55,353 nt of DNA from Candidatus Omnitrophota bacterium (GTDB lineage Bacteria; Omnitrophota; Gorgyraeia; Gygaellales; Profunditerraquicolaceae): positions 1-55,353 of the forward strand of contig JAZDFW010000089.1 of the NCBI GenBank assembly GCA_043807505.1, in the 5' to 3' direction. Shown one piece after another: positions 42,958-54,493 of this stretch. Each line of letters opens with the position of its first letter. Within the stretch, counting starts at the first letter, position 1. The translations under genes were made by a program, and so were the position numbers. The notes below the pieces were generated by a model. The model was not told the origin of the DNA and ran no database searches. It saw only the letters and a list, made by a program, of their open reading frames with translations.

Positions 42958-43701
42958 TTATTTTTGAGTTTCATCCAAAATACGAATAAGCGGTTCTTCC
43001 CAGCCAAAACAGGTAATCCCTATACCAATAAGTGCCTTAAACGCCTCAATGCATTCGGGGTCAATTTGCACGAACTCTTCAAGCATCCGTACAACCTCAT
43101 TCATAAATCCACCCACAATACCATTCGAGTCGTCTACACCGCCGACGCGTAACTTTTTATCCAGCCGTAAAAGTAGTTTTACCAGAATTTCAGCCGCCTG
43201 CCTGTTAACCGGCAAATCAGAAACTACCGCCGATAGCATATTGCATCCTTCACGCAGCGAATCCTGATTCGCAAACCAGGTGCGCGACGGCCCACTGTAT
43301 GGTTTGATATACCGTAAGGCCTCAGTGATAGATTTTTTAACCACGGTTAACTCTTCTTTATTTATCGCTCTCTGCTGCCTACTGCACTCGACCTGATGAT
43401 CAAGTTCCTTGTCTTTATCGTTTAAGGGGCGGCCAGCCATGACAACATGGAGTGCTAAAGCCACTATATGTTTGCAAAGCGTATCTTTTTCACCAAGATA
43501 GCAAGTACAACTTCCGTGTTTATAATTTCGGGCCGATACTGAAACCCGATAAGGCCTTGTCCCCAAGACAACAGCGGTATAATTCCCACCCCACTCCTCA
43601 ACTTCTGTCACCTTACCGCTTTCATATAAACCCACCGCGCGCTGGAATGTTGCCTCGTCGGTCGCAAATTTAATTTTGTTAAGGTCGTATGATAGAATCA
43701 T
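42958..43701 (-). CDS. SWIM zinc-finger protein, function unknown
   Basis: CTCYLGEKDTLCKHIVAL fits the SWIM pattern CxCx(n)CxH. The helical C-terminal region is unassigned. Confidence 0.65.
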   Translation of the reverse strand: MILSYDLNKIKFATDEATFQRAVGLYESGKVTEVEEWGGNYTAVVLGTRPYRVSVSARNYKHGSCTCYLGEKDTLCKHIVALALHVVMAGRPLNDKDKELDHQVECSRQQRAINKEELTVVKKSITEALRYIKPYSGPSRTWFANQDSLREGCNMLSAVVSDLPVNRQAAEILVKLLLRLDKKLRVGGVDDSNGIVGGFMNEVVRMLEEFVQIDPECIEAFKALIGIGITCFGWEEPLIRILDETQK

Positions 43702-44252: not shown

Positions 44253-45590
44253 TCATATTCTGGGAATATGATGGAAAACAACTGAGTTTCCAATTTTTAG
44301 TTTCTCAATGAATTTTCCAGCTTTTTTTCGTTTTCTATTATTTGGACTAGTTAATTTTAATGATTTCTCAAACTCTTTTTCATCAATAAACTTCTCAGTG
44401 TTAATCTCGTTGTAATAGCAAAATAGTGGCACATGTTTTAATTTAGTATCAGCAAACATCGCGCCATTAAATAAATAAAGCCCCGTTAAGTATCCTTCTA
44501 AATAAGAATGCTCAAGCCAATTTAGTTTATATTTCTTTACAAGGCTCTCGTATGCATTAATCGAATTTAATAAATACTTAGTACACAGGGATTTTCCTCC
44601 TTTGACTTTATTTATCAAATATTGGAATGCATGCAAGATGCCATCTTGGTAAGAGAGACAATAAATAATCTCCGGGAATTTAGTATGTTTATACTTCCTT
44701 GATGTTATATCATGTCTTCTTAGGACATATTCTTGTATTGATAATACCTTAGATAAATTTTCCAAAGGCAATAAACATCCTTTTTGCTCAAACCTTTTTC
44801 TTAATTGACGAATAAAATAACTTCCTTCAGTATAAATCGGTTTCAAATTATATTTAATCCAGTTCTTTTCATTGGATCTATCTAGCGTAACAACATAGGC
44901 CTGTCTTCGAAAATCGCCCATTTTACTCGAGATGTATTTGTAAATTCTTTGGAAATCCTCATCTTGGAATGAATATCCAATAAAAACAATAATATTTTGA
45001 GCTAGAAATAATTTCAATTTGCTCCCAATTGTATTCCTATTTAATTCTCGATAGCATCTTTTGTAATCTTCTTCTGTCGCAACAATAGATCCTAAGTCAT
45101 TTATCGAACCGTGGATTTTCAGAACTCTTCTACTTGAGGTATTCCAGAATGGAACATCAGTGTCATACACAAAGGGAGTAGCATTTGATATGGTTTCTAA
45201 GAAATCGTCCCAATTGGTTGTAACGAGATTTTCAACGCAAGGAAAAACAGAAATTTCTTCATGAAATTCAGTAGCTCGGTTAAATAATTCAGGCCATGCT
45301 TTAAAATAATCGAGTCTTTCTCTAATTTTATTAATTAAAGGTGCTCTACTTCCAAATTTTTTAACATGTAAACTCATTACTTTGGAAAATGAAAGAGCTT
45401 TATTGTTTTTTAATTTAAGCTCAACAAGAACGCTTTCATAAAAAGTATCAGGAAATACTCTTTTTGCCTCCGTGCTGATGCCTGCTCCAATGAACAAAAC
45501 TACGTCGTGAATTTCATTGATAATCTCTTCTGGCAAGACGAATTCAATATAATCCCGACATGTCTTACAATCTTTATTAAATTTTTTCAT
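44253..45590 (-). CDS. SIR2-family (SIR2_2/DHS-like NAD-binding, defence-type NADase) protein with an unassigned C-terminal domain
   Basis: VVLFIGAGIST glycine-rich loop, TTNWDD (catalytic Asn context), VLKIHGSINDLGSIVATEEDY (catalytic His) and VFIGYSFQDEDF. 445 aa. Confidence 0.75.
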   Translation of the reverse strand: MKKFNKDCKTCRDYIEFVLPEEIINEIHDVVLFIGAGISTEAKRVFPDTFYESVLVELKLKNNKALSFSKVMSLHVKKFGSRAPLINKIRERLDYFKAWPELFNRATEFHEEISVFPCVENLVTTNWDDFLETISNATPFVYDTDVPFWNTSSRRVLKIHGSINDLGSIVATEEDYKRCYRELNRNTIGSKLKLFLAQNIIVFIGYSFQDEDFQRIYKYISSKMGDFRRQAYVVTLDRSNEKNWIKYNLKPIYTEGSYFIRQLRKRFEQKGCLLPLENLSKVLSIQEYVLRRHDITSRKYKHTKFPEIIYCLSYQDGILHAFQYLINKVKGGKSLCTKYLLNSINAYESLVKKYKLNWLEHSYLEGYLTGLYLFNGAMFADTKLKHVPLFCYYNEINTEKFIDEKEFEKSLKLTSPNNRKRKKAGKFIEKLKIGNSVVFHHIPRI

Positions 45591-45877
45591 ATAATTCTGG
45601 GGACATCATACTTACCTTTCTCAATTAAGTATTGTGTCCCCCAAATTCCATTGCTTAGATCTTGAGTTCGCAAATCATCTCGCCATTGAGAACTACTCCA
45701 TCTTCTTTGGTCTATTTTTTCTTTCTCCTCTGATTGTAATAGCAACGCAATATTGCCTAGAATAATTAGAATGACGAAGAGAATTTTCCACCTTAAAGAC
45801 AATATTTTTTTATAATCAAAGGACATCCTACTAGTTATTATCGCGCTCAATAAAAATATTGCTATGATAGCAAACAT
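45587..45877 (-). CDS. small two-TM membrane protein translationally coupled to the SIR2 gene
   Basis: Two hydrophobic helices (FAIIAIFLLSAIIT and WKILFVILIILGNIALLL). An AGAGGAAAG RBS is present and the stop overlaps the SIR2 start (ATGA). The last ~19 codons are encoded by repeat copy B. Confidence 0.55.
   Translation of the reverse strand: MFAIIAIFLLSAIITSRMSFDYKKILSLRWKILFVILIILGNIALLLQSEEKEKIDQRRWSSSQWRDDLRTQDLSNGIWGTQYLIEKGKYDVPRII
45593..45649. repeat. inverted-repeat element, copy B
   Basis: An identical 22-mer, AATTCTGGGGACATCATACTTA (45593-45614), then 18 nt, then TGTGTCCCCCAAATTCC (45633-45649). Confidence 0.85.
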
Positions 45878-46041: not shown

Positions 46042-47580
46042 TCACAAAGTTGCTTCATTTAATGTCATCTTTTCTTCAAGACCATAAACAAATTTATCTA
46101 TATTTGAAATTCTTACTTCAAAGCCATCATTTTTTATAAATTTAAAGTAGCGTTCGGTATCAATGAAAGATTTAGGAGAAATGAACACAGCGTACGACTT
46201 AACACCATTTTTAATATATTCCTCAAGGTGCCTTTGCACCGAAAACGACTCTCTAATATGTTGTTGCGTACCTGTAAGTAAAGTAACTTCTATTAAAACC
46301 GTGTCCTCGTCTTCCAAGCATTCAATATCAGGATTCCCGCCCGATGCAAAACTCGTCGGTAAACCCTCGTCATCCGAGACAAAATTTGGTTTTACTGTTA
46401 CATTTGGTAATTTTTTAAGAATAGCCAGAGAAGTTAAAAATTCCAAACGCAAAGGCTGATCTATAATTTTCAGAATATTATCTCGGGAAGATTTTTTCTG
46501 CGCTAAATTAAGCATTTCAGTCCTAATTACTTCCCACTCGTAATGATTTACCCATTTTTCTAGTTCTATCTTGGTAGTTCTAATAGGTGCTTTATACACT
46601 GAAAGTGTAGCAATTAAATTGGCATCAACCGCTCCGATATAATCAAAAAAATCTTTTTCAGCCGTAAACGTTGGATAGGAAATATAATTTTCTAAAATAT
46701 AGCTTATCGCTGTTATCTCTTTTGTATTAATGTCAATAAAACGACCGCCGCCACGCAAAGAAATTAACCCAGTTAAACGCATTTTACGAATAAAATCATC
46801 AGGGTAATCGCCTAAAATAGAATTATCATCTCGCTTAGTTTCATTGAGTAGTTTATAACAAAGCTTCAAAATAGTTTCATTACTCGGCGAAAAGCCATAT
46901 TTTTTACGCAATTTTTTTATTTCCCGATATAGACTATTCGCATTATCGTTTTTCCAACACAACAATAAAGGAACTTCCAATCTTGAAATGCCTGCACCGT
47001 TAAAATCGGCATCTTTGTTTAAAAGTTTAATTGTCTGTATTAATAGAATTAAGGGCACATTTTTATTTAAAACTTTACGAAACGGATTTTGACGTTGATA
47101 TTTTGCAAAAGCATTAGCAAAAACCATTAATTCGTGTTCAGGTTTTTCTTTATCTAATAACATTTTTCCACTTTCAGAAAATTTTATTTGCTCGTTTTGC
47201 CAATACCAAACAAAGCCTAATTCTTTGGCTATTTTAAACCAAGTATCAAATCTTGACGGCCAACCTTTATCAAAACCTGCTTCCTTATGGCTTTGTGGAT
47301 TATTAATAAATGCTTGTTCGGTTTCTATTTTGCTTAATTCTACCTCATTTTTCCATTTATTCTTTATGCATAGAGAGACCTTCATAGGACGATACAAGCC
47401 TTTTTGAATCAAAACCTTGGCTACTTTTTCGATAATTTTATTCGTCAAAATTTTGCCATCATGCTCACTAAGAATTGTTAAAAAATCCTTTAATCGTTCA
47501 GGATTTCTTATTGTTGTCGTAAATAATAAAGGCTTATATTCGGATTGGCGTTTTTTCATAGTTTTAATAATTAGTAACAA
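46042..47580 (-). CDS. putative restriction endonuclease, AlwI-family-like (type IIS-type); family assignment tentative
   Basis: It lies last in an operon with two m6A methyltransferases. The N-terminal LLFTTTIRNPERLKDFL resembles the AlwI-family N-terminus as I recall it. The C-terminal GGNPDIECL...VLIEVTLL is a PD...E-x-K-like core. An alternative start exists at M8 (47559). Confidence 0.5.
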   Translation of the reverse strand: MLLIIKTMKKRQSEYKPLLFTTTIRNPERLKDFLTILSEHDGKILTNKIIEKVAKVLIQKGLYRPMKVSLCIKNKWKNEVELSKIETEQAFINNPQSHKEAGFDKGWPSRFDTWFKIAKELGFVWYWQNEQIKFSESGKMLLDKEKPEHELMVFANAFAKYQRQNPFRKVLNKNVPLILLIQTIKLLNKDADFNGAGISRLEVPLLLCWKNDNANSLYREIKKLRKKYGFSPSNETILKLCYKLLNETKRDDNSILGDYPDDFIRKMRLTGLISLRGGGRFIDINTKEITAISYILENYISYPTFTAEKDFFDYIGAVDANLIATLSVYKAPIRTTKIELEKWVNHYEWEVIRTEMLNLAQKKSSRDNILKIIDQPLRLEFLTSLAILKKLPNVTVKPNFVSDDEGLPTSFASGGNPDIECLEDEDTVLIEVTLLTGTQQHIRESFSVQRHLEEYIKNGVKSYAVFISPKSFIDTERYFKFIKNDGFEVRISNIDKFVYGLEEKMTLNEATL

Positions 47581-48469
47581 GGATCTCTTTAATTTTCTTT
47601 TTTCCGTTATTATGATAACTAATATAATTACTTTTTATTTTGTAAATTTTGTATTTATTCATCCATTTAATCAACGCATCATTTTTACTCCCGTTATAAT
47701 GCGTTACATTTGACAATGCAAATCGTACAGATTTTTTATTTAAATTATCAATTAAGTTTAGTAAATCAGATTCAGATTTCTGATCCCAAAATTTATTATA
47801 TTCACTCGCAGCTATTAAATAAGGGGGGTCTAAATAAACAAAATCATTTGCTGAAAATTTTATTTCAGAAAAAAAACTTCTAAAATCTTTTGAACTCAAT
47901 GCTGTCTTTTTATCTTGTACAAAATAAAAATAATTGTTTAAAGCATTAACAACATTTTTATTAAAATCGACATTTCCCACTGGGAGATTAAATCGACCCC
48001 CGCCATTGAATCTCAACATTCTGTTAAAACCATATATAAGCAAAATATACAAAATTAAAGGGTCATTATCATTATTTTTATTGACACGGTCTCTTAATTT
48101 TTCGTAGCCCTCTTTGTTGAATCTTGCATAATAAGTTTTTTCCCATTCTTTTTTTAGTGAATCCGGAATTACATCTTCTTTAAATGACCTAGATAGATTA
48201 TATTTGTATATTATTTTTTCAACACTTTTAAAAAAACGAATTGGATTCTTTGAATTTTCAATTAAAAATCGGTGTATGTTAATAAGGTTTTGATCTATGT
48301 CATTTAAAGAATACCTTTTTGCCTTGATATTTAAGAAAACGGTGCCACCACCAACAAAGGGTTCATAAAAATGATTTATTTCTTGCGGAAATAAATCAAT
48401 CAATTGTTTCATCAATTTATATTTATCTCCGACATAAAACAATGGGGATCTTTTAATTTTACTAAACAT
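47564..48469 (-). CDS. Dam-like (D12 class, alpha group) N6-adenine DNA methyltransferase
   Basis: FYVGDKYKL, EPFVGGGTVFLN (FxGxG) and YLDPPY (motif IV). 301 aa. Confidence 0.88.
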   Translation of the reverse strand: MFSKIKRSPLFYVGDKYKLMKQLIDLFPQEINHFYEPFVGGGTVFLNIKAKRYSLNDIDQNLINIHRFLIENSKNPIRFFKSVEKIIYKYNLSRSFKEDVIPDSLKKEWEKTYYARFNKEGYEKLRDRVNKNNDNDPLILYILLIYGFNRMLRFNGGGRFNLPVGNVDFNKNVVNALNNYFYFVQDKKTALSSKDFRSFFSEIKFSANDFVYLDPPYLIAASEYNKFWDQKSESDLLNLIDNLNKKSVRFALSNVTHYNGSKNDALIKWMNKYKIYKIKSNYISYHNNGKKKIKEILVTNY

Positions 48470-50276
48470 GGTTAATTTTTGTTACAAATAGATATTCTTT
48501 ATGGTTTTTAAATTCAGTATTGCCTGCGTTAAAATGTCTATATTCTTTTTCAAAAACCTTGGTTTCACCTTTTGCCGTCAAAATATTTTTAATTTCTTGG
48601 AGAGTAATTTTGTTTTTTGACGAGTTGCTTTTAGAAGCGTACGTATTATTATATGACACCACTAAATATTTTGCGTTAATATCTTTTACCAGCTCAGCAA
48701 GCTTATTTTTGGCTTGCACTCTACAATAATCGCTCATATTTTCAGAATCGGGCTTCAGTGCTGTACCGTATAATTTTGGCTTATCCCATTTGGTTAAAGT
48801 TTCTAGTACATGATAAAATCTGCTATACTGCCTCGAATTATACGGCGGATCAACATAAACTATATCTGCTCTGATTTTCTTCACCAACAGATTTGCATCT
48901 TCTCTAAAAATAGTTGCATTTTTTACATTTATCGGATCTATGGGCTTCATAAAAAATCCATCCTCAATGTAATCTTTTTTGAAATACGCATCGTAGTGGC
49001 CAACAGTATTAGCTATTTTATCAATTGAATATAATAGAGACGCCATAAGAATATAGTATTCTTTACTCGTTAAATTCTTTTTGTTTTCTTCAATATTTTC
49101 TCTGATAAATCCAATAATTTTAGATGATTTATGACTAAAATACTTACCTCCAAAATATTCGGAGAAATAATTATCTTCTAAATTTTCGCTATCAATATTA
49201 TTGTAGTCCTTAATAATATTACTGATTTTGTCTTTGTCCCATTTACCCTTACCAAAAAAAGCTTGATAAATTGCATGATTAGAGTGTAAAAAATCATTTA
49301 ATATGACCTCTTCAAAATGCCTCGCTGCAACAGCAGACACGACTCCAGTACCTGCAAAAATATCAGCAAAAGAATTTCCCTTCTCACATTCTTTGTTAAT
49401 TATAGAAAAAATCCACTCTATCAATTTATGCTTGCTGCCAATATACCTGCGGTTTTGTAGTTGGAGATGATTTTTTCTTATTTGCGGAATATAAAAATAT
49501 GTCTCCTTTACCTTTTCTGCATTTATTTCATAAGCGGGTTTTTCAATTTCCAGTAAATTAAAAAATGTTGTTTGTATTTCATCGGATACATAATCGAGAT
49601 TTTTATCTTTAATTTTTAATTTTTCATAAAAACTATAGCTCCCATTATTTACTGTAATAATAAAATCTAAAACAGCAATCCCCATTATTTCTCCTGCCTG
49701 AGATATTTTCTTAACAATCTCAATGTCTTTTCCACTTGGAGTTGAGACTCCCGATGGGTGGTTATGAATTAAAATAATACTTGCAGCATTAATTTCTACT
49801 GCTGGATAAAAAACTTCTCTTGGATGTATCAAGCTTTTATCGAGTAAACCAATACTTATAGTTTCTTTTTTGATTAAAATATTTCTTGCATTAAGGTACA
49901 GACAAACTAAATACTCCTTTTTCTTATCTCTCAAATCATAGGTAAGCGATAGAACATCCTTGTGATTCTTTATTATGACTTCATTTCCTTTTTCTTCTTC
50001 ATAAAACCTTTTTACTAAAGAAATTGCGGAAACTATTTGTAACGCTTTAACTTGTCCAATGCCTGGAATTTCTAACAAATTACCGACTTCAATATTCAAA
50101 AAACTTTTACCAAATTTTTTTATAATGTGTTCTGAAAGCTGCCTAACATTTTTACCCTTAATTCCACTTCCAAGTAATATTGCCAAGAGATCGCTTTTGG
50201 AAAGAGCATCTGCTCCTTTTTTTAGAAATCTTTCCCGCGGACGATCCACAAGAGGAATATCTTTGATTTTTGTCAT
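48462..50276 (-). CDS. fusion of a full-length RadC/JAB (MPN) domain protein to a D12-class N6-adenine DNA methyltransferase
   Basis: Residues 1-~225 give PLVDRPRERFLKKGADALSKSDLLAILLGSG, an HhH, and HNHPSG (JAMM motif). The C-half gives RYIGSKHKL, FAGTGVVS (FxGxG) and VYVDPPYNSRQY (DPPY). Confidence 0.85.
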   Translation of the reverse strand: MTKIKDIPLVDRPRERFLKKGADALSKSDLLAILLGSGIKGKNVRQLSEHIIKKFGKSFLNIEVGNLLEIPGIGQVKALQIVSAISLVKRFYEEEKGNEVIIKNHKDVLSLTYDLRDKKKEYLVCLYLNARNILIKKETISIGLLDKSLIHPREVFYPAVEINAASIILIHNHPSGVSTPSGKDIEIVKKISQAGEIMGIAVLDFIITVNNGSYSFYEKLKIKDKNLDYVSDEIQTTFFNLLEIEKPAYEINAEKVKETYFYIPQIRKNHLQLQNRRYIGSKHKLIEWIFSIINKECEKGNSFADIFAGTGVVSAVAARHFEEVILNDFLHSNHAIYQAFFGKGKWDKDKISNIIKDYNNIDSENLEDNYFSEYFGGKYFSHKSSKIIGFIRENIEENKKNLTSKEYYILMASLLYSIDKIANTVGHYDAYFKKDYIEDGFFMKPIDPINVKNATIFREDANLLVKKIRADIVYVDPPYNSRQYSRFYHVLETLTKWDKPKLYGTALKPDSENMSDYCRVQAKNKLAELVKDINAKYLVVSYNNTYASKSNSSKNKITLQEIKNILTAKGETKVFEKEYRHFNAGNTEFKNHKEYLFVTKINHV

Positions 50277-50303
50277 TCTTTACCTACCTTGCTATCTACT
50301 AAA

Positions 50304-50335
50304 CAAAAAACCCTCGCCATTTCTAGCGAAGGTTT
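50304..50335 (-). terminator. rho-independent terminator-like hairpin ~28 nt upstream of the RadC-MTase start
   Basis: The minus strand reads CCUUCGC-uagaaaug-GCGAGGG (7 bp including one G-U), followed by TTTTTTG. Confidence 0.6.
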
Positions 50336-50394
50336 TAATTATATTAACGTGGCAGTTCCCCCTTCAAACATACCACACCTAATTTTCACTTCTA

Positions 50395-50456: not shown

Positions 50457-50582
50457 TTAGAACCTTAGAATTTTCAAAACTCCCGCGCCCTTCTTTAAGA
50501 GCTTCTCCCTCGGCCTGTCATCCTCCGGCCAATTCTTTATCGATTTTTCATAGAGTTTTCTTTGCCCTGACTTTTTCACCAT
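50457..50582 (-). pseudogene. radC: truncated radC remnant (first ~36 codons only)
   Basis: My own translation gives MVKKSGQRKLYEKSIKNWPEDDRPREKLLKKGAGVLKILRF*. The WPEDDRPREKLLKKGAGVL stretch is the conserved RadC N-terminus. The sequence then diverges and stops where the expected S(D/E)xELLAILL should follow. Confidence 0.65.
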
Positions 50583-50755
50583 TATTTATTCGTCCTTGAT
50601 TTTATAAAATCTTCTAAATCCTCGGGTTTAACGCGCCACTGTCCTATTTTAGTAGCCCGAATTTGCTTCTCCCGAATAAGCTCACGGATTCTATACTCAG
50701 TAAGGCCTAATTGTTTAGCAACCCGTCTGACTGTAAGGTAATCTTTTATAGTCAT
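50582..50755 (-). CDS. excisionase/AlpA-type helix-turn-helix DNA-binding protein (57 aa)
   Basis: My own translation gives MTIKDYLTVRRVAKQLGLTEYRIRELIREKQIRATKIGQWRVKPEDLEDFIKSRTNK, which fits the HTH_17/excisionase pattern (L(T/S)..E(V/A)A..LG(V/L)S...I..L...G.I.A.K.G..WR). It is below the ORF-track length cut-off. The stop overlaps the radC-remnant ATG (TAATG). Confidence 0.7.
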   Translation of the reverse strand: MTIKDYLTVRRVAKQLGLTEYRIRELIREKQIRATKIGQWRVKPEDLEDFIKSRTNK

Positions 50756-50764
50756 AACCCCTCT

Positions 50765-50798
50765 CTAATGTTAGTACACATTAGTTCACATTATACCA
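50765..50798 (-). promoter_or_regulatory. extended -10 promoter plus a perfect 7-bp palindrome upstream of the HTH gene
   Basis: The minus strand has TGGTATAAT (50790-50798). Next comes CTAATGT-6 nt-ACATTAG (50765-50784), lying between the -10 element and the RBS. Confidence 0.45.
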
Positions 50799-50800
50799 CT

Positions 50801-52093
50801 TTATAGAAAAAATTCCTCGCCATCTTTTAGTATCAGTACATTTTTGAAAAGTACCGGATATTCTTCAGCCTCAAAGGTATGTATTGGTATAAGCGTCTTA
50901 GGATTTATGCCACTAGCAAATGATTCAAGATCTTCTTTTGTGGCATGGCCGCTTGTATGAACGTATTCTACAGATAACCCCTTGTCTTTACAAAATGCCC
51001 TAAATCCTTCGGAAAGATATCCATCCCACATAGAATATGCTATCTTAGCACCTGCCACATCCTTAATTTTATTTAAAAACAATGGAAAGACGGAATTATC
51101 ACGCGCAAGCATAAGAATTCTATTCTTGTTCCTACTAATTTCGGGCATTTCAATCTTTCTTTTGTTGTAGATATAGAGCAAGTCTATGTGGCCCGCTCTT
51201 TCAAGCGCCTTCGCATGGGTATTAAGAAACTTGACTCTAATATTCTTCCAATTAAACTGAGGAATTCGATCAGAGACTTTTTTGAGTTTATCCAGAATAA
51301 AAGCTGTATAAATATCAATGACGAAGATTGAATCAGTCTTAAGGCACGCTCTGTATGCCGAGACAATTCTGTCGATATTCTGAGATGAAGTAAAGAAAAA
51401 GGTTATATTCTTTCTTTCCCTCAGAATTTCCTCAAGCCGGTTTTCAACATCTCCCTCAGCTTTATACTGAGCATCCTCTCTGCCAAGCGCTGAACCCTCC
51501 ATAAGCAAACAGTCTATATTCTGGGGTGGACTCTTAATAATCTGCTTAAATAATTTAGCTTTTCTCCCATGGGCTCTAAAATCTCCGGAATAAAATAGCC
51601 TCTTTCCATCTGCCTCAATCAGGAAGGCAAAGGCATCAAAAGCAGAGTGATCAACCAGAAACGGCTGAATGATAAAATCACCTATTCTAAACCGCTTCTT
51701 ATTGCTGATTATGTTTGTATTTATCTTGCCGACTTTGGTGGGGACAAAGATATTGGAAACGTCTATAAGAATGCCGGCGCCTCGACTTAAATAAATCGGT
51801 ATTTCCGGATTAACATATTGAAGAAAACCGTAATGATCAAGGTGAGAATGAGAAATCAATATTCCGTCTATCTCTTTTTTCTCATCCTTATAGAGCCCCT
51901 TTATGTCGGGAAGGATACCTTGTGCCCTGAGATCCTGTATTGTCTTACCTTTGAGCAAATTCGCATCAAATGGTTTACAGTCACGAGTGACCAAGGGAAT
52001 GCCGAAATCAATCAATATCCTATTGTTAGCCGCCTTTAGCTCAACACAACTTCCGCCTATTTCATGAGTACCACGGTGAACGATTATTTTCAT
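50801..52093 (-). CDS. metallo-beta-lactamase-fold nuclease of the beta-CASP type (RNase J/SNM1-like)
   Basis: SHSHLDHYG (HxHxDH), VDHS and YSGDF, a beta-CASP insert, HTSGHA (motif B) and IPIHT (motif C). 430 aa. Confidence 0.75.
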   Translation of the reverse strand: MKIIVHRGTHEIGGSCVELKAANNRILIDFGIPLVTRDCKPFDANLLKGKTIQDLRAQGILPDIKGLYKDEKKEIDGILISHSHLDHYGFLQYVNPEIPIYLSRGAGILIDVSNIFVPTKVGKINTNIISNKKRFRIGDFIIQPFLVDHSAFDAFAFLIEADGKRLFYSGDFRAHGRKAKLFKQIIKSPPQNIDCLLMEGSALGREDAQYKAEGDVENRLEEILRERKNITFFFTSSQNIDRIVSAYRACLKTDSIFVIDIYTAFILDKLKKVSDRIPQFNWKNIRVKFLNTHAKALERAGHIDLLYIYNKRKIEMPEISRNKNRILMLARDNSVFPLFLNKIKDVAGAKIAYSMWDGYLSEGFRAFCKDKGLSVEYVHTSGHATKEDLESFASGINPKTLIPIHTFEAEEYPVLFKNVLILKDGEEFFL

Positions 52094-52986
52094 ATATTAA
52101 ACGGGTTTCCGTCAGGATTTTCCCACCAACGAGATGGCAATTCAATTATTCTGAGCTTCACTTGGCCTTTAAGCGGCCATTCAGGTATTTTGTGTGGTTT
52201 TATTACTACTGCAATTGCTTCAATGCCTTTTTGACTAAAATCATAATTGCCTAAAGGCATATAGTGTTCTCTTATCATTTCTTCAGGGGTACCTAACTCC
52301 GGATCAAACTTACTTCCACTATGCAAAAACCAGTTTGAATAATCTTGCAGTTCATTGATAGCGGTACTTAAATTGTAATCTTTCTTCAATTCTACTATTA
52401 CACTTTTTCCATCTCTGTTAAGACTAAATAAATCAATATGAAAAGCTCTTCTTCTCGTCTTTGACGGTTTTACTACTACTGGAACTTGTGAAACCACATT
52501 ACTCAAATCTGTGTTAATACCTAGATGCTCCCGGGCACGTTTCCCTCCTTCAGTGTCAGATAAAATCAGGCTTTCAAGCCAATGTTCCATCGAAAACCCG
52601 GGGATCATTCGTTTCTGTCTCGGGTGCTCTACAAAATCAGGCCGCTCCATAATTGGCTGTACAATTTTCAAGAATTCACTTACTTTATCTAAGGTTTGGC
52701 CTTCTGATATTTTTAAAGCTCTCCTTACTTTACTATTTCTGACTTCTAAAGTAAGTTTATACTTATTCTCAGAAGTAAGCTGCAATAACTCAAGTCCGCA
52801 ATACCTAAAACTAATATGCTTACTAACAAATGCTAATCTTGGCGTTACCACAAGATTTTTGCCATCAATAAATGGTTGAAAGAGATCTTCAACCTCTTTT
52901 ATCCGCTCTTGCGTTATTTTCCATCCGGCCTCCTGAAACTCTTTGGTTTGGACGGTTTGTATAGCAAAATAGTTGAATAGGCTCAT
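52090..52986 (-). CDS. protein with a C-terminal NucS/DUF91-like PD-(D/E)xK nuclease domain; N-terminal domain unknown
   Basis: EHWLESLIL...HIDLFSLNRDGKSVIVELKKDYNLSTAINELQDY matches the E...D...E-x-K...Q..Y layout of NucS-type nucleases. Its stop overlaps the MBL start (4 nt). Confidence 0.55.
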   Translation of the reverse strand: MSLFNYFAIQTVQTKEFQEAGWKITQERIKEVEDLFQPFIDGKNLVVTPRLAFVSKHISFRYCGLELLQLTSENKYKLTLEVRNSKVRRALKISEGQTLDKVSEFLKIVQPIMERPDFVEHPRQKRMIPGFSMEHWLESLILSDTEGGKRAREHLGINTDLSNVVSQVPVVVKPSKTRRRAFHIDLFSLNRDGKSVIVELKKDYNLSTAINELQDYSNWFLHSGSKFDPELGTPEEMIREHYMPLGNYDFSQKGIEAIAVVIKPHKIPEWPLKGQVKLRIIELPSRWWENPDGNPFNI

Positions 52987-53002
52987 AGTTTTCCCAAATT
53001 TA

Positions 53003-54493
53003 TTATTTAGAAGATATATTACCCAGCGAATCCAATATTTCTATCATACCCTTTGTATCTAAATCACAATACTTCTCAAGAGCGGCACGGATGCGCTGAC
53101 GCTCCTTTTCGGCAACTTCTTTCCCAAAAGTTACCCGACAATACTCAATACTCGCCATCCCACCATCAGCTATTTCCATGTTATTGTAGTTCGATTTTGT
53201 CATTACAGGGAGAACGCTCTTGAGCGAAGCGCTCCCTGCTTGGTCTGGATGGTAATAAAGAAAACCTCGGAAAGGTGTAAGTAGATCAACAACGCGCTCC
53301 TCCACCGATGTCACCCATCCTTGATACTCAGGATATGCCTCGCTTGCATGCCGAAGCGTTGTCTTCTCAAACGTAGCGTTGTAAGCAATAACTGATCCTG
53401 AATTTCCTAACAACGCTTTTAATTGCTTTAGAATCTCAGGTCTTGGGTCTTTATCCCCGGGCGCAAGATATGAGTGGTGCTCGGGTTTCATGCCTTTCTC
53501 TTTGATTACATATAAAGAATATTGAAAAGGGATCGCTTCAAACGGCCTAGAATTATCATAAGCAGGTATTGCCGGGTTAATCGTTTCGAAATCAAGGAAA
53601 TAAAGAGGGTACTCTAACGTGTATAGAAAGTCCTTTATCCCTTTCTTATCAACGTGAGGAAGGTTTGTTTTACAACATTTGACCTGGATACTCTGCTTAT
53701 CGCTCAGTTTTACATCGTCTTTGATATCGGCAATACTCAATACCCCGCGCTCTAATAGCTCATAGGCCTTCTTTTTACCCGAATACAAACAAAAGATATC
53801 ACCTTTTTCAGGCAGAAAGCCCCAACATATATCCTCAAGCGGACATGGATATGGGCTATCACAATGCGGACCTACTTTTACTTGCAACGCATCCTGTTTC
53901 TTTATTATCTCAAGCATATCGGCTATGTTTTGCTCTATTTCCGGAATGAGCTCATCGCATTGTTTAGTGACATCTTCTGTGGCAAATAGTTTCTTCGGCT
54001 CTATCGCTCCTTTACGCACATATTGGTTATTGATATACATGAGGTAACACTTGCGGATCTTCAGGCCTGAGCCTTCATATAAATACTTTTGAAAGGCGAC
54101 GTCATTATAATGCTCATCCTTTACGCTGCTGGAGCTTTTCACTTCAATGAGATCCCATGCGCCCTTCTCAACTGGGTTAAGTATATCGGCTAGGGCATAG
54201 CCTTGTTTATGCACAAAACATGCTTCAAAAAGAGGTTTTCGAAGCTTGGCGGCCTCCAAAGACTTTGTTGCCTGTTTAGCTGGATCATAGTCTCTTCCGA
54301 GAACAATGCCACCGGGAAAGAGTGTATGTGCTAGCTTTCCGACAACCGTGCCTTGATCCATTATAGCCTGTGTAGCAGCATCAATCTCCGGCAGGTCTTC
54401 CTTGCGGTTATACTCATACCATAGAAGCTTATGGCATTTAAGCCCTTCGAGGTATTTAGTTTTGGACAAAAATGGAGATGGTCTATTTTTCAT
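53003..54493 (-). CDS. DUF2779-type protein: Cas4/RecB-like PD-(D/E)xK nuclease (with Cys cluster) plus a C-terminal RNase H/DnaQ-like domain
   Basis: LSKTKYLEGLKCHKLLWYEY is a DUF2779-type N-terminus. Also DLIEVKSSS (D..E-x-K), CDSPYPCPLEDIC (3 Cys, plus the N-terminal Cys as in Cas4/AddB Fe-S nucleases) and YFLDFETINPAIP...PFQYS. Confidence 0.7.
   Translation of the reverse strand: MKNRPSPFLSKTKYLEGLKCHKLLWYEYNRKEDLPEIDAATQAIMDQGTVVGKLAHTLFPGGIVLGRDYDPAKQATKSLEAAKLRKPLFEACFVHKQGYALADILNPVEKGAWDLIEVKSSSSVKDEHYNDVAFQKYLYEGSGLKIRKCYLMYINNQYVRKGAIEPKKLFATEDVTKQCDELIPEIEQNIADMLEIIKKQDALQVKVGPHCDSPYPCPLEDICWGFLPEKGDIFCLYSGKKKAYELLERGVLSIADIKDDVKLSDKQSIQVKCCKTNLPHVDKKGIKDFLYTLEYPLYFLDFETINPAIPAYDNSRPFEAIPFQYSLYVIKEKGMKPEHHSYLAPGDKDPRPEILKQLKALLGNSGSVIAYNATFEKTTLRHASEAYPEYQGWVTSVEERVVDLLTPFRGFLYYHPDQAGSASLKSVLPVMTKSNYNNMEIADGGMASIEYCRVTFGKEVAEKERQRIRAALEKYCDLDTKGMIEILDSLGNISSK

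Follow-up and report, generated by a model that had tools for sequence, protein, structure and literature searches.

The RadC-M1 gene and its neighbours

The window, by which we mean the whole 55,353-nucleotide stretch of DNA analysed here, is chromosomal and contains LPS and housekeeping genes. Among its genes is one that we designate RadC-M1 (48462–50276, minus strand), coding for 604 amino acids plus a stop, in which an N-terminal RadC segment (the cap) is joined through a linker to a D12-class m6A DNA methyltransferase (M1). The strand is a correction, as none was given in the first-pass annotation. RadC-M1 appears in the open reading frame listing as a single frame with an ATG start and no internal stops, and all of the motifs previously picked out by eye (DRPRERF, LLAILLGSG, HNHPSG, RYIGSK, FAGTGVVS and DPPY) are found in it.

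The N-terminal half has each of the three features by which RadC proteins are recognised. There is a UPF0758_N domain, the helix-hairpin-helix (HhH)-type N-domain of RadC (50043–50267, minus strand; residues 4–78; Pfam PF20582, E 9e-21), followed by a RadC JAB/MPN domain (49620–49970, minus strand; residues 103–219; Pfam PF04002, E 3e-35) with a complete JAMM motif consisting of E154 (49815–49817) and H171-x-H173-x7-S181-x2-D184 (49725–49766), and the score against the NCBIfam RadC equivalog PRK00024 (209.7 bits over residues 14–219) exceeds the cut-off of 180, as does that against TIGR00608 (202.5 bits, cut-off 133.85). The Chlorobium tepidum RadC JAB domain (PDB 2qlc) is matched both in sequence (E 3e-24, 38–40% identity) and in the fold of the predicted structure (TM 0.85). 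Across 39 sequences from two clades E154, H171, H173 and D184 do not vary, while S181 reaches at least 90% conservation; the JAMM motifs are likewise kept in the aligned fusions to C5 and N6/N4 methyltransferases. The pN/pS values are 0.18 for the HhH domain, 0.21 for JAB and 0.16 for the methyltransferase, the highest being that of the stretch from residue 220 to 270 (0.31). The JAMM conservation together with the low pN/pS suggests that the cap is a functional module. Standalone RadC (UPF0758; E. coli YicR; PDB 2qlc) has both domains and the full JAMM motif in common with the cap, but the cap is covalently joined to a methyltransferase, carries a specific tail, and is encoded in a mobile restriction–modification (R-M) cassette rather than at a housekeeping locus.

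The tail (49527–49595, minus strand; residues 228–250, DYVSDEIQTTFFNLLEIEKPAYE) follows the JAB domain in methyltransferase-fused RadCs and conforms to a pattern of about 23 residues, DYVxDGxQxxLFDLLE..., which is shared by D12 and C5 fusions and is weaker in the N6/N4 fusions. A rough version of the pattern is present in 207 of 287 proteins of fusion size and in one of 28 RadCs of standalone size, this one being a fragment of a fusion. Beyond the tail is a variable linker (49452–49526, minus strand; residues 251–275). An AF2 model of RadC-M1 is of medium confidence overall (pLDDT 74.8, pTM 0.56) with pLDDT below 50 at residues 242–251, and each half of the model matches its own known fold, which is consistent with two globular units connected by a flexible linker.

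The methyltransferase domain (48465–49445, minus strand; residues 278–604) has the alpha-type motif order of D12-class N6-adenine enzymes, with NRRYIGSK at residues 275–282, FAGTG at residues 307–311 (49344–49358), a target-recognition region, and DPPY at residues 476–479 (48840–48851); FAGTG and DPPY are invariant among the homologues. It matches Pfam MethyltransfD12 (PF02086; residues 278–539, E 1e-34) and PADLOC MTase_II (PDLC03373; residues 269–601, E 7.5e-128), and its predicted structure matches a Dam-like fold. M1 is thus predicted to be a complete adenine methyltransferase of the D12 class that generates m6A.

The start of the next gene overlaps the end of RadC-M1 by 8 nucleotides. This gene, M2 (47564–48469, minus strand), encodes a 301-residue Dam-family (T4-Dam-like) m6A methyltransferase (TIGR00571, 147 bits; T4 Dam in the PDB, E 1.5e-40), and its position beside M1 is conserved in the clade A and clade C cassettes. 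An AlwI-family Type II restriction endonuclease (46042–47580, minus strand; Pfam RE_AlwI, E 6e-42; PADLOC REase_II PDLC03507, E 2e-127) follows on the same strand as M2, overlapping or abutting it, with a C-terminal catalytic domain resembling that of R.BspD6I/Nt.BspD6I. The endonuclease frame opens with a TTG at 47580 and is 512 codons long from there; homologues align from residue 7 or 8 and the called genes are of 505 residues, and the true start is probably the ATG at 47559, giving 505 amino acids. The R-M operon proposed in the first-pass annotation is therefore present as RadC-M1, M2 and endonuclease, an order conserved at more than 30 loci, and it is a Type II system of the AlwI family, probably Type IIS. 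In the PADLOC double-methyltransferase models PDLC03292 and PDLC03287, one half corresponds to M1 and the other to M2, a pairing that would fit an asymmetric recognition site for the two-methyltransferase cassette; clade B cassettes contain one methyltransferase, the capped one.

In-frame covalent joining of RadC and methyltransferase, as noted earlier, is confirmed by the uninterrupted frame, by contigs spanning the junction, and by in-frame homologues. Logan contigs from two drinking-water metagenome runs cross the junction (pieces X1, 49266–49974, and X2, 49072–50048) with no differences and no gaps, and no indels in the RadC-M1 frame are reported in Logan contigs from four metagenome runs; these are independent assembled contigs, not raw reads, and they answer the earlier call for a check against frameshift or misassembly with a continuous junction. 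The full-length architecture is kept in more than 120 protein clusters at 75–100% identity, and in more than 120 further clusters forming a second clade. A metagenome assembly is the source of the sequence, and the two genes could in principle have been joined by a frameshift, a chimeric assembly or read-through; against this, the uninterrupted architecture recurs in independent assemblies, hundreds of them, that come from many studies and cover many phyla, the junction is continuous and indel-free in contigs of independent runs, and the linker is under purifying selection (pN/pS 0.31). An artefactual origin has a negligible chance of being correct and is effectively refuted by these observations. 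Inspection of residues 200–300 for start codons found no ATG and no GTG; the sole alternative, a TTG at residue 285, lies within the methyltransferase domain, and no Shine-Dalgarno-like purine run was seen by eye in the 20 nucleotides preceding it, so that separate production of the methyltransferase from the RadC cap seems unlikely.

Mobility of the cassette and of the cap

RadC-M1, M2 and the endonuclease gene are conserved as a set within unrelated flanks, and nucleotide homology between loci extends in most of them from the ATG of RadC-M1 (or a few bases from it) to the stop codon of the endonuclease; in the window the boundary is the ATG itself, at 50276. At the sequence level the three genes are shown to be a horizontally mobile Type II cassette. 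AlwI-family Type IIS systems have two m6A methyltransferases, either separate or fused as M1-M2, and resemble the cassette in the endonuclease and in both the M1 and M2 halves. Orthologous cassettes that lack the cap but keep the gene order are common among them, some being on Firmicutes and Helicobacter plasmids; M1 of the window differs by approximately 250 additional N-terminal residues, which correspond to a complete RadC plus the tail.

The region upstream of the cassette (50307–50367, minus strand) contains a candidate promoter, TTGAAG-18-TATAAT (50338–50367), followed by a hairpin (50307–50336) with a 13-bp stem and a T-run. A consensus scan finds promoter-like sites upstream to be no commoner than in shuffled sequence, and in Logan contigs the segment 50298–50387 has a local spike in depth and divergent flanks. 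Upstream there is an HTH_17 gene, as at locus L011, and a separate small XRE C-protein gene lies upstream at other loci (L001, L014, L017, L020, L022, L035, L041 and L093–L095). In SsoII-type R-M systems the methyltransferase has an N-terminal regulatory HTH, and RadC-M1 resembles these and C-protein-fused methyltransferases in having an extra N-terminal DNA-binding domain. Cap-less M1 orthologues in Bacteroidota MAGs (L058, L059, L062, L070, L082, L088 and P0130) have an XRE-type HTH at the same N-terminal position, which, with the promoter-like site, points to a regulatory alternative in which the cap is a DNA-binding domain through which the methyltransferase represses its own operon. However, RadC-M1 has an HhH and a catalytic JAB domain where the HTH would be, DNA binding by HhH is non-specific, repression would not call for a catalytic JAB site to be conserved, loci that share the cap have no upstream DNA conserved between them, and many of the capped cassettes already have a separate XRE C-protein or HTH_17 gene. 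We consider autoregulation of this type improbable.

The cap is found on three classes of methyltransferase, in each case with a different endonuclease-type gene directly downstream. It is present on D12 m6A enzymes of clades A and B with AlwI-family endonucleases, on C5 methyltransferases beside RE_HpaII and Vsr genes, or MTaX1, or NOV_C and RE_NgoFVII_C genes, and on an N6_N4 methyltransferase beside an EcoRII-C endonuclease. The general proposition of the first-pass annotation, a cooperation between RadC and the modification machinery, gains in strength because the same RadC module occurs on three unrelated methyltransferase classes. The particular mechanisms offered there, by which RadC would direct the methyltransferase to incoming or single-stranded DNA or serve as a regulatory or proteolytic module, are compatible with these data. 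This range of partners also bears on the idea that the JAB domain is a nuclease aiding restriction, either as the cutter of the second strand where an AlwI-family nickase cuts the first, or as part of a Type IIG-like enzyme. To our knowledge, the HpaII, EcoRII-C and MTaX1 endonucleases have no requirement for a partner, the AlwI-type endonuclease family works in cassettes lacking the cap, and M2 and the endonuclease are retained in variants in which JAB is deleted. Some members of the AlwI family are nickases that do need a second subunit (BspD6I), and in published accounts RadC takes the place of a 3'–5' exonuclease domain in related DinG-type helicases; Iyer et al. (2011) proposed a nuclease activity for JAB. 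On balance the cap is hardly likely to be a nuclease subunit.

Comparison of a clade A protein (P0097) with one of clade B (L034) reveals 91% identity in RadC and 87% at residues 220–250, falling past residue 250 to 36% (residues 251–275) and 45% thereafter. RadC plus its tail thus appears to be a portable unit that recombination has moved between methyltransferases, with a breakpoint near residue 250, in the linker. In these cassettes RadC occurs fused or not at all; around 42 cap-less cassettes the flanks examined (up to 6 kb) contain no separate radC gene, and one 808-kb contig contains two capped methyltransferases. Because RadC is fused or absent and two capped methyltransferases share one contig, the tethering itself would seem to matter.

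These patterns have to be set against the simplest account of the fusion, in which RadC performs its normal job and is co-expressed with a mobile cassette, spreading with it but not functionally coupled to it. The cap scores above the RadC equivalog threshold (PRK00024) and is 42–48% identical to standalone RadCs, cassettes without it work, and many of the hosts belong to lineages with small genomes, where genes are commonly fused. A hitch-hiking cap would nevertheless not be expected to occur on three unrelated methyltransferase classes and always within R-M operons, to possess a tail of its own, to have been shifted between methyltransferases, and to remain constantly fused, never occurring as a separate neighbouring gene, with even HhH-only derivatives still attached and two capped methyltransferases on one contig. 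We regard co-expression without coupling as unlikely.

Orthologous cap-less cassettes are present in Bacteroidales, Lachnospiraceae, Bdellovibrionales and Firmicutes plasmids, and in several proteins (L045, L048, P0282/P0283 and P0315) the JAB domain is deleted and the HhH kept, with differing deletion boundaries. This suggests that the cap is a dispensable accessory of which the HhH is the minimal useful part. The JAB-less variants retain the fused HhH within an apparently intact R-M cassette, which is difficult to reconcile with a proteolytic role, in which the JAB metallopeptidase would cut the tail to free the methyltransferase, or degrade endonuclease or methyltransferase, and so set the ratio of the two while the cassette becomes established in a new host. 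The partner endonucleases furthermore span at least five Pfam families, making a specific protease–substrate pair unlikely. In favour of proteolysis, JAB domains that have been characterised biochemically are peptidases, the JAMM site is conserved, polyvalent proteins are processed by peptidase domains (PMC5512222), and RadC is elsewhere reported fused to the ArdC metallopeptidase module. A conserved peptide also follows directly after JAB in fusions with unrelated methyltransferases and is succeeded by a flexible linker; the tail could thus serve for cleavage and not for structure, and one possibility is that JAB cleaves it, which would make the cap a self-processing delivery device. Overall we judge a proteolytic or self-processing role to be quite unlikely.

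Distribution of the fusion

The fusion forms hundreds of 90%-identity clusters in metagenomes, from many phyla and one DPANN archaeal MAG, and is present at approximately 44 of the 80 listed loci from GTDB species-representative genomes, again of many phyla. Capped cassettes are enriched in Patescibacteria and other uncultured small-genome lineages, which could reflect phylogenetic or horizontal transfer history rather than function. The architecture, earlier called unusual, is therefore not rare. It is uncharacterised: full-text literature searches found no paper describing a RadC–methyltransferase fusion, and the labels given to it in databases go no further than 'DNA repair protein RadC' or 'adenine-specific DNA-methyltransferase'. 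The concern that it might prove both common and already characterised is accordingly borne out for its first part and not for its second.

With a threshold of at least 80% coverage there is no record of the fusion among 72,556 plasmids or 50,697 phage records, and no full-length fusion among the best 80 IMG/VR matches listed. The earlier remark that RadC is common on mobile elements is thus not apt for the fusion. It differs in this from polyvalent proteins, which are products of phages, plasmids or conjugative elements and either enter together with the invading DNA or are expressed from it early. Because neither the plasmids and phages nor the IMG/VR matches listed contain the fusion, we prefer a role in cellular defence over counter-defence by an element. 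The RadC fusions described in the accessible text of Iyer et al. (2011, 2017), with ArdC, DnaG-type primases, DinG/Rad3 helicases and polyvalent proteins, are also DNA-acting and belong to conflicts between hosts and elements, and to that extent they support a nucleic-acid-related role of RadC. As reported there, the partners of RadC are HhH, ArdC, primase and helicase modules, DNA methyltransferases not being among those given, and the fusions are carried by conjugative elements and are offensive (anti-restriction). RadC-M1, unlike these, belongs to host defence, its setting being that of chromosomal R-M operons.

A proposed role for the cap

We tentatively favour the interpretation that the cap is a DNA-engaging accessory tethered to the protective methyltransferase, such that new or self DNA would be methylated before it is cut. 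The HhH domain would keep the methyltransferase on a particular DNA state, most likely newly arrived, single-stranded or newly synthesised DNA, and the JAB domain would perform a metal-dependent hydrolytic step on the same substrate, although this role for JAB is a guess. Methylation chemistry and core R-M function would be independent of the cap, and self or newly integrated DNA would be methylated ahead of endonuclease cutting. HhH motifs bind DNA with neither sequence nor strand preference, so the sequence does not imply that single-stranded or nascent DNA would be preferred; any benefit of the cap is presumably conditional, because orthologous cassettes lacking it are common.

The outcome would be analogous to that provided by DpnA in the pneumococcal DpnII cassette. 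DpnII of Streptococcus pneumoniae (DpnM, the ssDNA methylase DpnA, and DpnB) similarly has three genes encoding two adenine methyltransferases and an endonuclease. It has no RadC fusion, and the analogy would be a functional one; DpnA is a methyltransferase of a different class, the methyltransferases here look like a strand-specific Type IIS pair, and in clade B the capped methyltransferase is alone. In streptococci and in Legionella the radC gene belongs to the competence regulon, in Haemophilus it has a link to competence, and in streptococci it is grouped with dpnA and dpnB (PMC5069739, PMC12378983, PMC12826799). Both dpnA and radC are in the core SigX competence regulon of streptococci (PMC5069739), and this shared regulon lends circumstantial support to the idea of methylation of incoming single-stranded DNA. 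In cyanobacteria, RadC is the tightest correlate of a methylated palindrome (2026 preprint). Deletion of radC in pneumococcus left transformation unaffected (Attaiech 2008, as reported in citing papers). A broader and more doubtful proposal is that RadC in general partners DNA methyltransferases on DNA that has just been acquired or made, for example in transformation or after replication, and that it has here been hard-wired as a portable N-terminal module.

Among bacterial proteins that have no known function RadC is one of the most widespread, and the earlier description of its function as unresolved holds in the literature up to 2026, in which it is called 'elusive' or a 'putative nuclease implicated in competence'. 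The fusion provides a clue from context, and a concrete one, which published lists of RadC fusions do not contain as far as their accessible text goes: time and again, and as a module, RadC is tethered to the methyltransferase that gives an R-M system its protection. This is so whether the enzyme makes m6A (two classes do) or m5C, and regardless of which endonuclease is its partner. The question of RadC also becomes testable, as the output of the attached enzyme is DNA methylation, which can be read by SMRT or nanopore sequencing, and cap-less orthologues, HhH-only derivatives and cap swaps are natural controls. The cassettes have crossed many phyla and reached a DPANN archaeal MAG, and the fusion bears on how R-M systems become established after horizontal transfer and on how Patescibacteria and other small-genome organisms reconcile DNA uptake with restriction. 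If the partnership between RadC and DNA methyltransferases is true, this would be a 'Rosetta-stone' fusion revealing the long-sought role of RadC.

A RadC-methyltransferase gene in an AlwI-family restriction-modification cassette

The gene at 48462..50276 (- strand) is a single uninterrupted open reading frame with an ATG start, coding for a 604-residue protein (RadC-M1) with Pfam matches to UPF0758_N (aa 4-78), the RadC JAB domain (aa 103-219) and MethyltransfD12 (aa 278-539), all with E-values <1e-20. The N-terminal 219 residues score 209.7 bits against the NCBI RadC equivalog model (curated cut-off 180), the JAMM motif is whole (E154, then H171-x-H173-x7-S181-x2-D184), and the methyltransferase motifs NRRYIGSK, FAGTG and DPPY are each found. 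The two genes directly downstream are on the same strand. The first, M2 (47564..48469), shares 8 nt with the end of the fusion gene and encodes a 301-residue Dam-family methyltransferase (T4 Dam match, E 1.5e-40), and the second (46042..47580) encodes an AlwI-family restriction endonuclease (Pfam E 6e-42; PADLOC REase_II E 2e-127) whose C-terminal catalytic domain resembles R.BspD6I/Nt.BspD6I; comparison with homologues suggests that its true start is the ATG at 47559, giving a product of 505 aa. The first-pass annotation, which described a complete RadC fused in frame to a D12 methyltransferase within a restriction-modification (R-M) operon, is borne out in both respects. Taken by itself, the R-M system is an ordinary cassette of the AlwI family, and every domain in it belongs clearly to its own family.

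The possibility of a frameshift or assembly artefact at the junction, raised in the same annotation, was addressed with assembled Logan contigs, as distinct from raw reads. Independently assembled contigs from two drinking-water metagenomes cover the junction with no differences or gaps (X1, 49266-49974; X2, 49072-50048), and no indels within the reading frame are reported among Logan contigs of four runs. These spanning contigs, together with the many homologues of the same full-length architecture, rule out a frameshift or chimera, and the fusion is real. Neither ATG nor GTG is present between aa 200 and 300, which rules out a separate internal translation start of that kind; the sole alternative, a TTG at aa 285, lies within the methyltransferase domain and lacks an upstream Shine-Dalgarno-like purine run (sequence read by eye), so the methyltransferase is unlikely to be translated alone.

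AlphaFold2 gave a poor model from an alignment of 24 close homologues (pLDDT 57) and a usable one from 39 sequences of two clades (pLDDT 74.8 overall), with two globular parts and a low-confidence linker (pLDDT <50 at aa 223-226 and 242-251). The RadC part matches 2qlc (TM 0.85) and the methyltransferase part matches E. coli Dam (TM ~0.55). This tie to Dam comes from the fold search only, as a PDB sequence search with the methyltransferase half alone gave no match even at E up to 10.

The cassette is housed in a chromosomal defence island (~42.9-55 kb of the window), the host being a diderm bacterium with lipopolysaccharide and housekeeping genes. At 44253-45877 there is a 445-residue SIR2-domain protein with PADLOC matches including the ThsA and PDC-S25 models, preceded with a 4-nt overlap by a 96-aa reading frame whose N-terminal half is hydrophobic and membrane-like; nearby (42958-43701) is a 247-residue PDC-S62-like protein, and these are likely to be additional defence genes on the flank of the R-M cassette. 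Upstream of the cassette (50582-54493) are a 57-aa HTH_17 (excisionase/MerR-like) gene, a 430-aa metallo-beta-lactamase-fold protein with an RMMBL domain, a protein of 298 aa that matches no family, and a 496-aa DUF2779/Cas4-like protein, the metallo-beta-lactamase-fold and DUF2779/Cas4-like proteins being in one operon; this may represent an uncharacterised nuclease operon. A comparable HTH_17-like reading frame lies 3 nt upstream of RadC-M1 at another locus, L011. Just upstream of the cassette, a promoter-like site is followed by a hairpin with a 13-bp stem and a T-run (50307-50336). The interval 50298-50387 has a local depth spike in the metagenome runs (116x vs ~7.5x in X2), and many contigs diverge on both sides of it, a pattern consistent with a short repeated element or with a recombination boundary that several genomes share. 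GATC is strongly under-represented across the whole window (1-55353; observed/expected 0.47 in a maximal-order Markov model), as is GACGC (0.47). Only these two are depleted; GGATC, GAGTC, CCATC and further Type IIS sites occur in the window about as often as expected, and site avoidance gave no recognition site.

Distribution and three cassette types

Relatives of the fusion with the same three Pfam domains along the whole protein form >120 protein clusters at 75-100% identity, the closest named one being from an Omnitrophota MAG, and a second clade of >120 further clusters is 39-56% identical to the window protein. Among GTDB species-representative genomes, RadC-fused M1 was found in ~44 of the best 80 of 594 confirmed matches, and because only these 80 contributed to the count the true number is probably higher. 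The hosts at these loci include many classes of Patescibacteria, and further hosts are found in Atribacteria, Gammaproteobacteria, Planctomycetia, Margulisiibacteriota, Auribacterota, Nitrospirae, Nautiliales, Spirochaetaceae and Bacteroidales. The one archaeal host is a Woesearchaeota MAG (L041, DUGB01000073.1), with a full-length fusion at 386-2200, an XRE C-protein-like reading frame upstream and an AlwI-family endonuclease downstream. The contig is binned as a DPANN archaeon, which suggests either that the fusion has crossed between domains or that the contig was misbinned.

Mapping four parts (the RadC cap, M1, M2 and the endonuclease) on all loci separates three cassette types. Type A, to which the window belongs, has RadC-M1, M2 and the endonuclease; type B has a related RadC-M1' and endonuclease and no M2, such that the capped enzyme is the sole methyltransferase seen at the locus; and type C has M1 (52-70% identical), M2 and the endonuclease without RadC. 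Type C is found in Bdellovibrionales, Bacteroidales, Lachnospiraceae and others, and also on plasmids of Staphylococcus, Enterococcus, Lactococcus, Leuconostoc and Helicobacter. Nucleotide homology to the window starts, in most loci, at the fusion ATG or no more than a few bases away from it, and in type A cassettes with an endonuclease allele of 80% identity it ends at the endonuclease stop; these boundaries indicate that the three genes move as a unit. Flanking genes vary from locus to locus.

The type A endonucleases (L001-L040, L054) fall into two alleles, ~80% or ~50% identical to that of the window, with M1 and M2 72-84% identical in both groups, and the endonuclease seems to have been replaced inside an otherwise conserved cassette. 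At L029, L031 and L032 the M1 match ends at about residue 186-268 of the methyltransferase part and M2 is missing; these may be decaying or rearranged copies. In several type A loci (L009, L016, L023 and L028) only 2 nt separate the start of RadC-M1 from an abutting gene; this gene is identified in L009 and L010 as Pfam DUF4357, and it may be a further cassette accessory.

A portable and dispensable N-terminal cap

A RadC N-terminus 46-62% identical to that of the window is also present, among 1.84 billion cluster representatives, on C5-cytosine methyltransferases (P0138, P0140, P0217), and one is likewise present on an N6/N4 methyltransferase (P0213). The C5 fusions are numerous and lie directly upstream of genes for RE_HpaII plus Vsr, MTaX1, or NOV_C and RE_NgoFVII_C, and the N6/N4 fusion has an EcoRII-C endonuclease gene downstream. 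With the D12 enzymes, three methyltransferase classes carry the cap, and these architectures show that it goes with any methyltransferase chemistry and any partner endonuclease. A type A and a type B protein (P0097 and that of L034) share 91% of residues in RadC and 87% in aa 220-250, and identity then drops to 36% in aa 251-275 and 45% in the methyltransferase; this is a sharp recombination breakpoint at which the cap has been swapped between methyltransferases.

The D12 and C5 caps have in common a tail directly after JAB (window aa 228-250) with the pattern DYVxDGxQxxLFDLLExEKPxY. By this rough pattern it is present in 207 of 287 fusion-size proteins and in 1 of 28 standalone-size RadCs, the single exception being a fusion fragment. 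Because standalone RadC lacks this shared tail, a scenario in which housekeeping radC was joined to each methyltransferase class independently is disfavoured, and a single recombining lineage is more likely; most caps thus appear to belong to one lineage recombining among methyltransferases. The conserved tail is also suggestive of a rival explanation in which the cap exerts proteolytic or self-processing control.

The cap is under purifying selection, with pN/pS of 0.18 for the helix-hairpin-helix (HhH) region, 0.21 for JAB, 0.31 for the linker and 0.16 for the methyltransferase (synonymous sites near saturation). Four JAMM residues are invariant in both D12 clades, and S181 is at least 90% conserved, and the motif is kept in the C5 and N6/N4 fusions compared. 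Two different capped C5 methyltransferases are encoded at separate R-M loci of one 808-kb contig, ERZ25071281 ctg49558 (L092, 4001-5953; L180, 4001-5530), indicating that the cap is an accessory of each individual system rather than just the single RadC of the cell. One of these adjoins an MTaX1 gene; the other adjoins NOV_C and RE_NgoFVII_C genes and has an IS1595 transposase farther downstream.

Type C cassettes are common, and in these M1 has a bare N-terminus, carries an XRE-type HTH or is fused to M2. No separate radC was found within flanks of up to 6 kb of any of the 42 cap-less cassettes; over this range RadC is either fused or absent. In some fusions JAB has been deleted, with differing boundaries, leaving HhH fused to the methyltransferase: L045 and L048 (D12), and P0282/P0283 and P0315 (C5). 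The two D12 examples (L045, 6001-7449; L048, 144-1481) are natural HhH-only derivatives with M2 and the endonuclease still downstream, and HhH is shown to be the part kept upon JAB loss. The cap is dispensable for the core R-M system and is an add-on to it. The occurrence of orthologues with an HTH in the same N-terminal slot raises the possibility that the cap acts in transcriptional autoregulation, although many capped cassettes already contain a separate C protein. Other relatives of M1 (P0129, P0130, P0159) have N-terminal LexA-like Peptidase_S24, XRE HTH or AAA_21 ATPase (1011 aa) modules, and this family's N-terminus seems to be a hotspot for accessory domains.

Possible roles of the cap

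These data show a complete and constrained RadC tethered covalently, through a flexible linker, to the protective methyltransferase of R-M systems. Co-expression of two functionally uncoupled activities would be one explanation of this arrangement. We favour a role concerning DNA, in which the cap would act by proximity rather than by specific contacts with the methyltransferase, perhaps delivering it to, or retaining it on, a DNA state endangered by the endonuclease. The product of dpnA is the single-strand-specific methyltransferase of the DpnII cassette. In streptococci and Legionella radC belongs to the competence regulon, and in Haemophilus it is linked to competence (PMC5069739; PMC12378983; PMC12826799); in streptococci it has been placed together with dpnA (PMC5069739), and a 2026 preprint on cyanobacteria independently reports RadC as the tightest evolutionary correlate of a methylated palindrome. 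Because of these associations, newly arrived or newly made DNA would be the best candidate for the endangered state. Iyer et al. predicted nuclease or other nucleic-acid-processing activity for JAB, and the cap could alternatively be a nuclease partner for restriction.

The expectation that RadC is common on mobile elements holds for RadC-like proteins and does not extend to the fusion. None of 72,556 plasmids and none of 50,697 phage genomes has a match that covers at least 80% of the fusion, and the 80 best IMG/VR matches listed are all methyltransferase-only or RadC-only. A phage or plasmid anti-restriction methylase is rejected on this lack of full-length matches in the three collections, and the fusion thus belongs to cellular R-M systems. 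It lies outside the anti-restriction repertoire of mobile elements, in which RadC-like proteins and the earlier described RadC fusions occur.

What is new is the RadC-methyltransferase architecture and its generality. The available parts of catalogues of RadC fusions give HhH, ArdC, primase, helicase and polyvalent proteins as partners, and R-M methyltransferases are not among them. A search of full-text literature found no description of such a fusion; REBASE, InterPro architectures and subscription journals were outside its scope and could hold an earlier mention. The architecture is common, with >120 clusters in each clade, but not already characterised, and its members are named in databases as 'DNA repair protein RadC' or 'adenine-specific DNA-methyltransferase'. 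The fusion gives a tractable way into the function of RadC.
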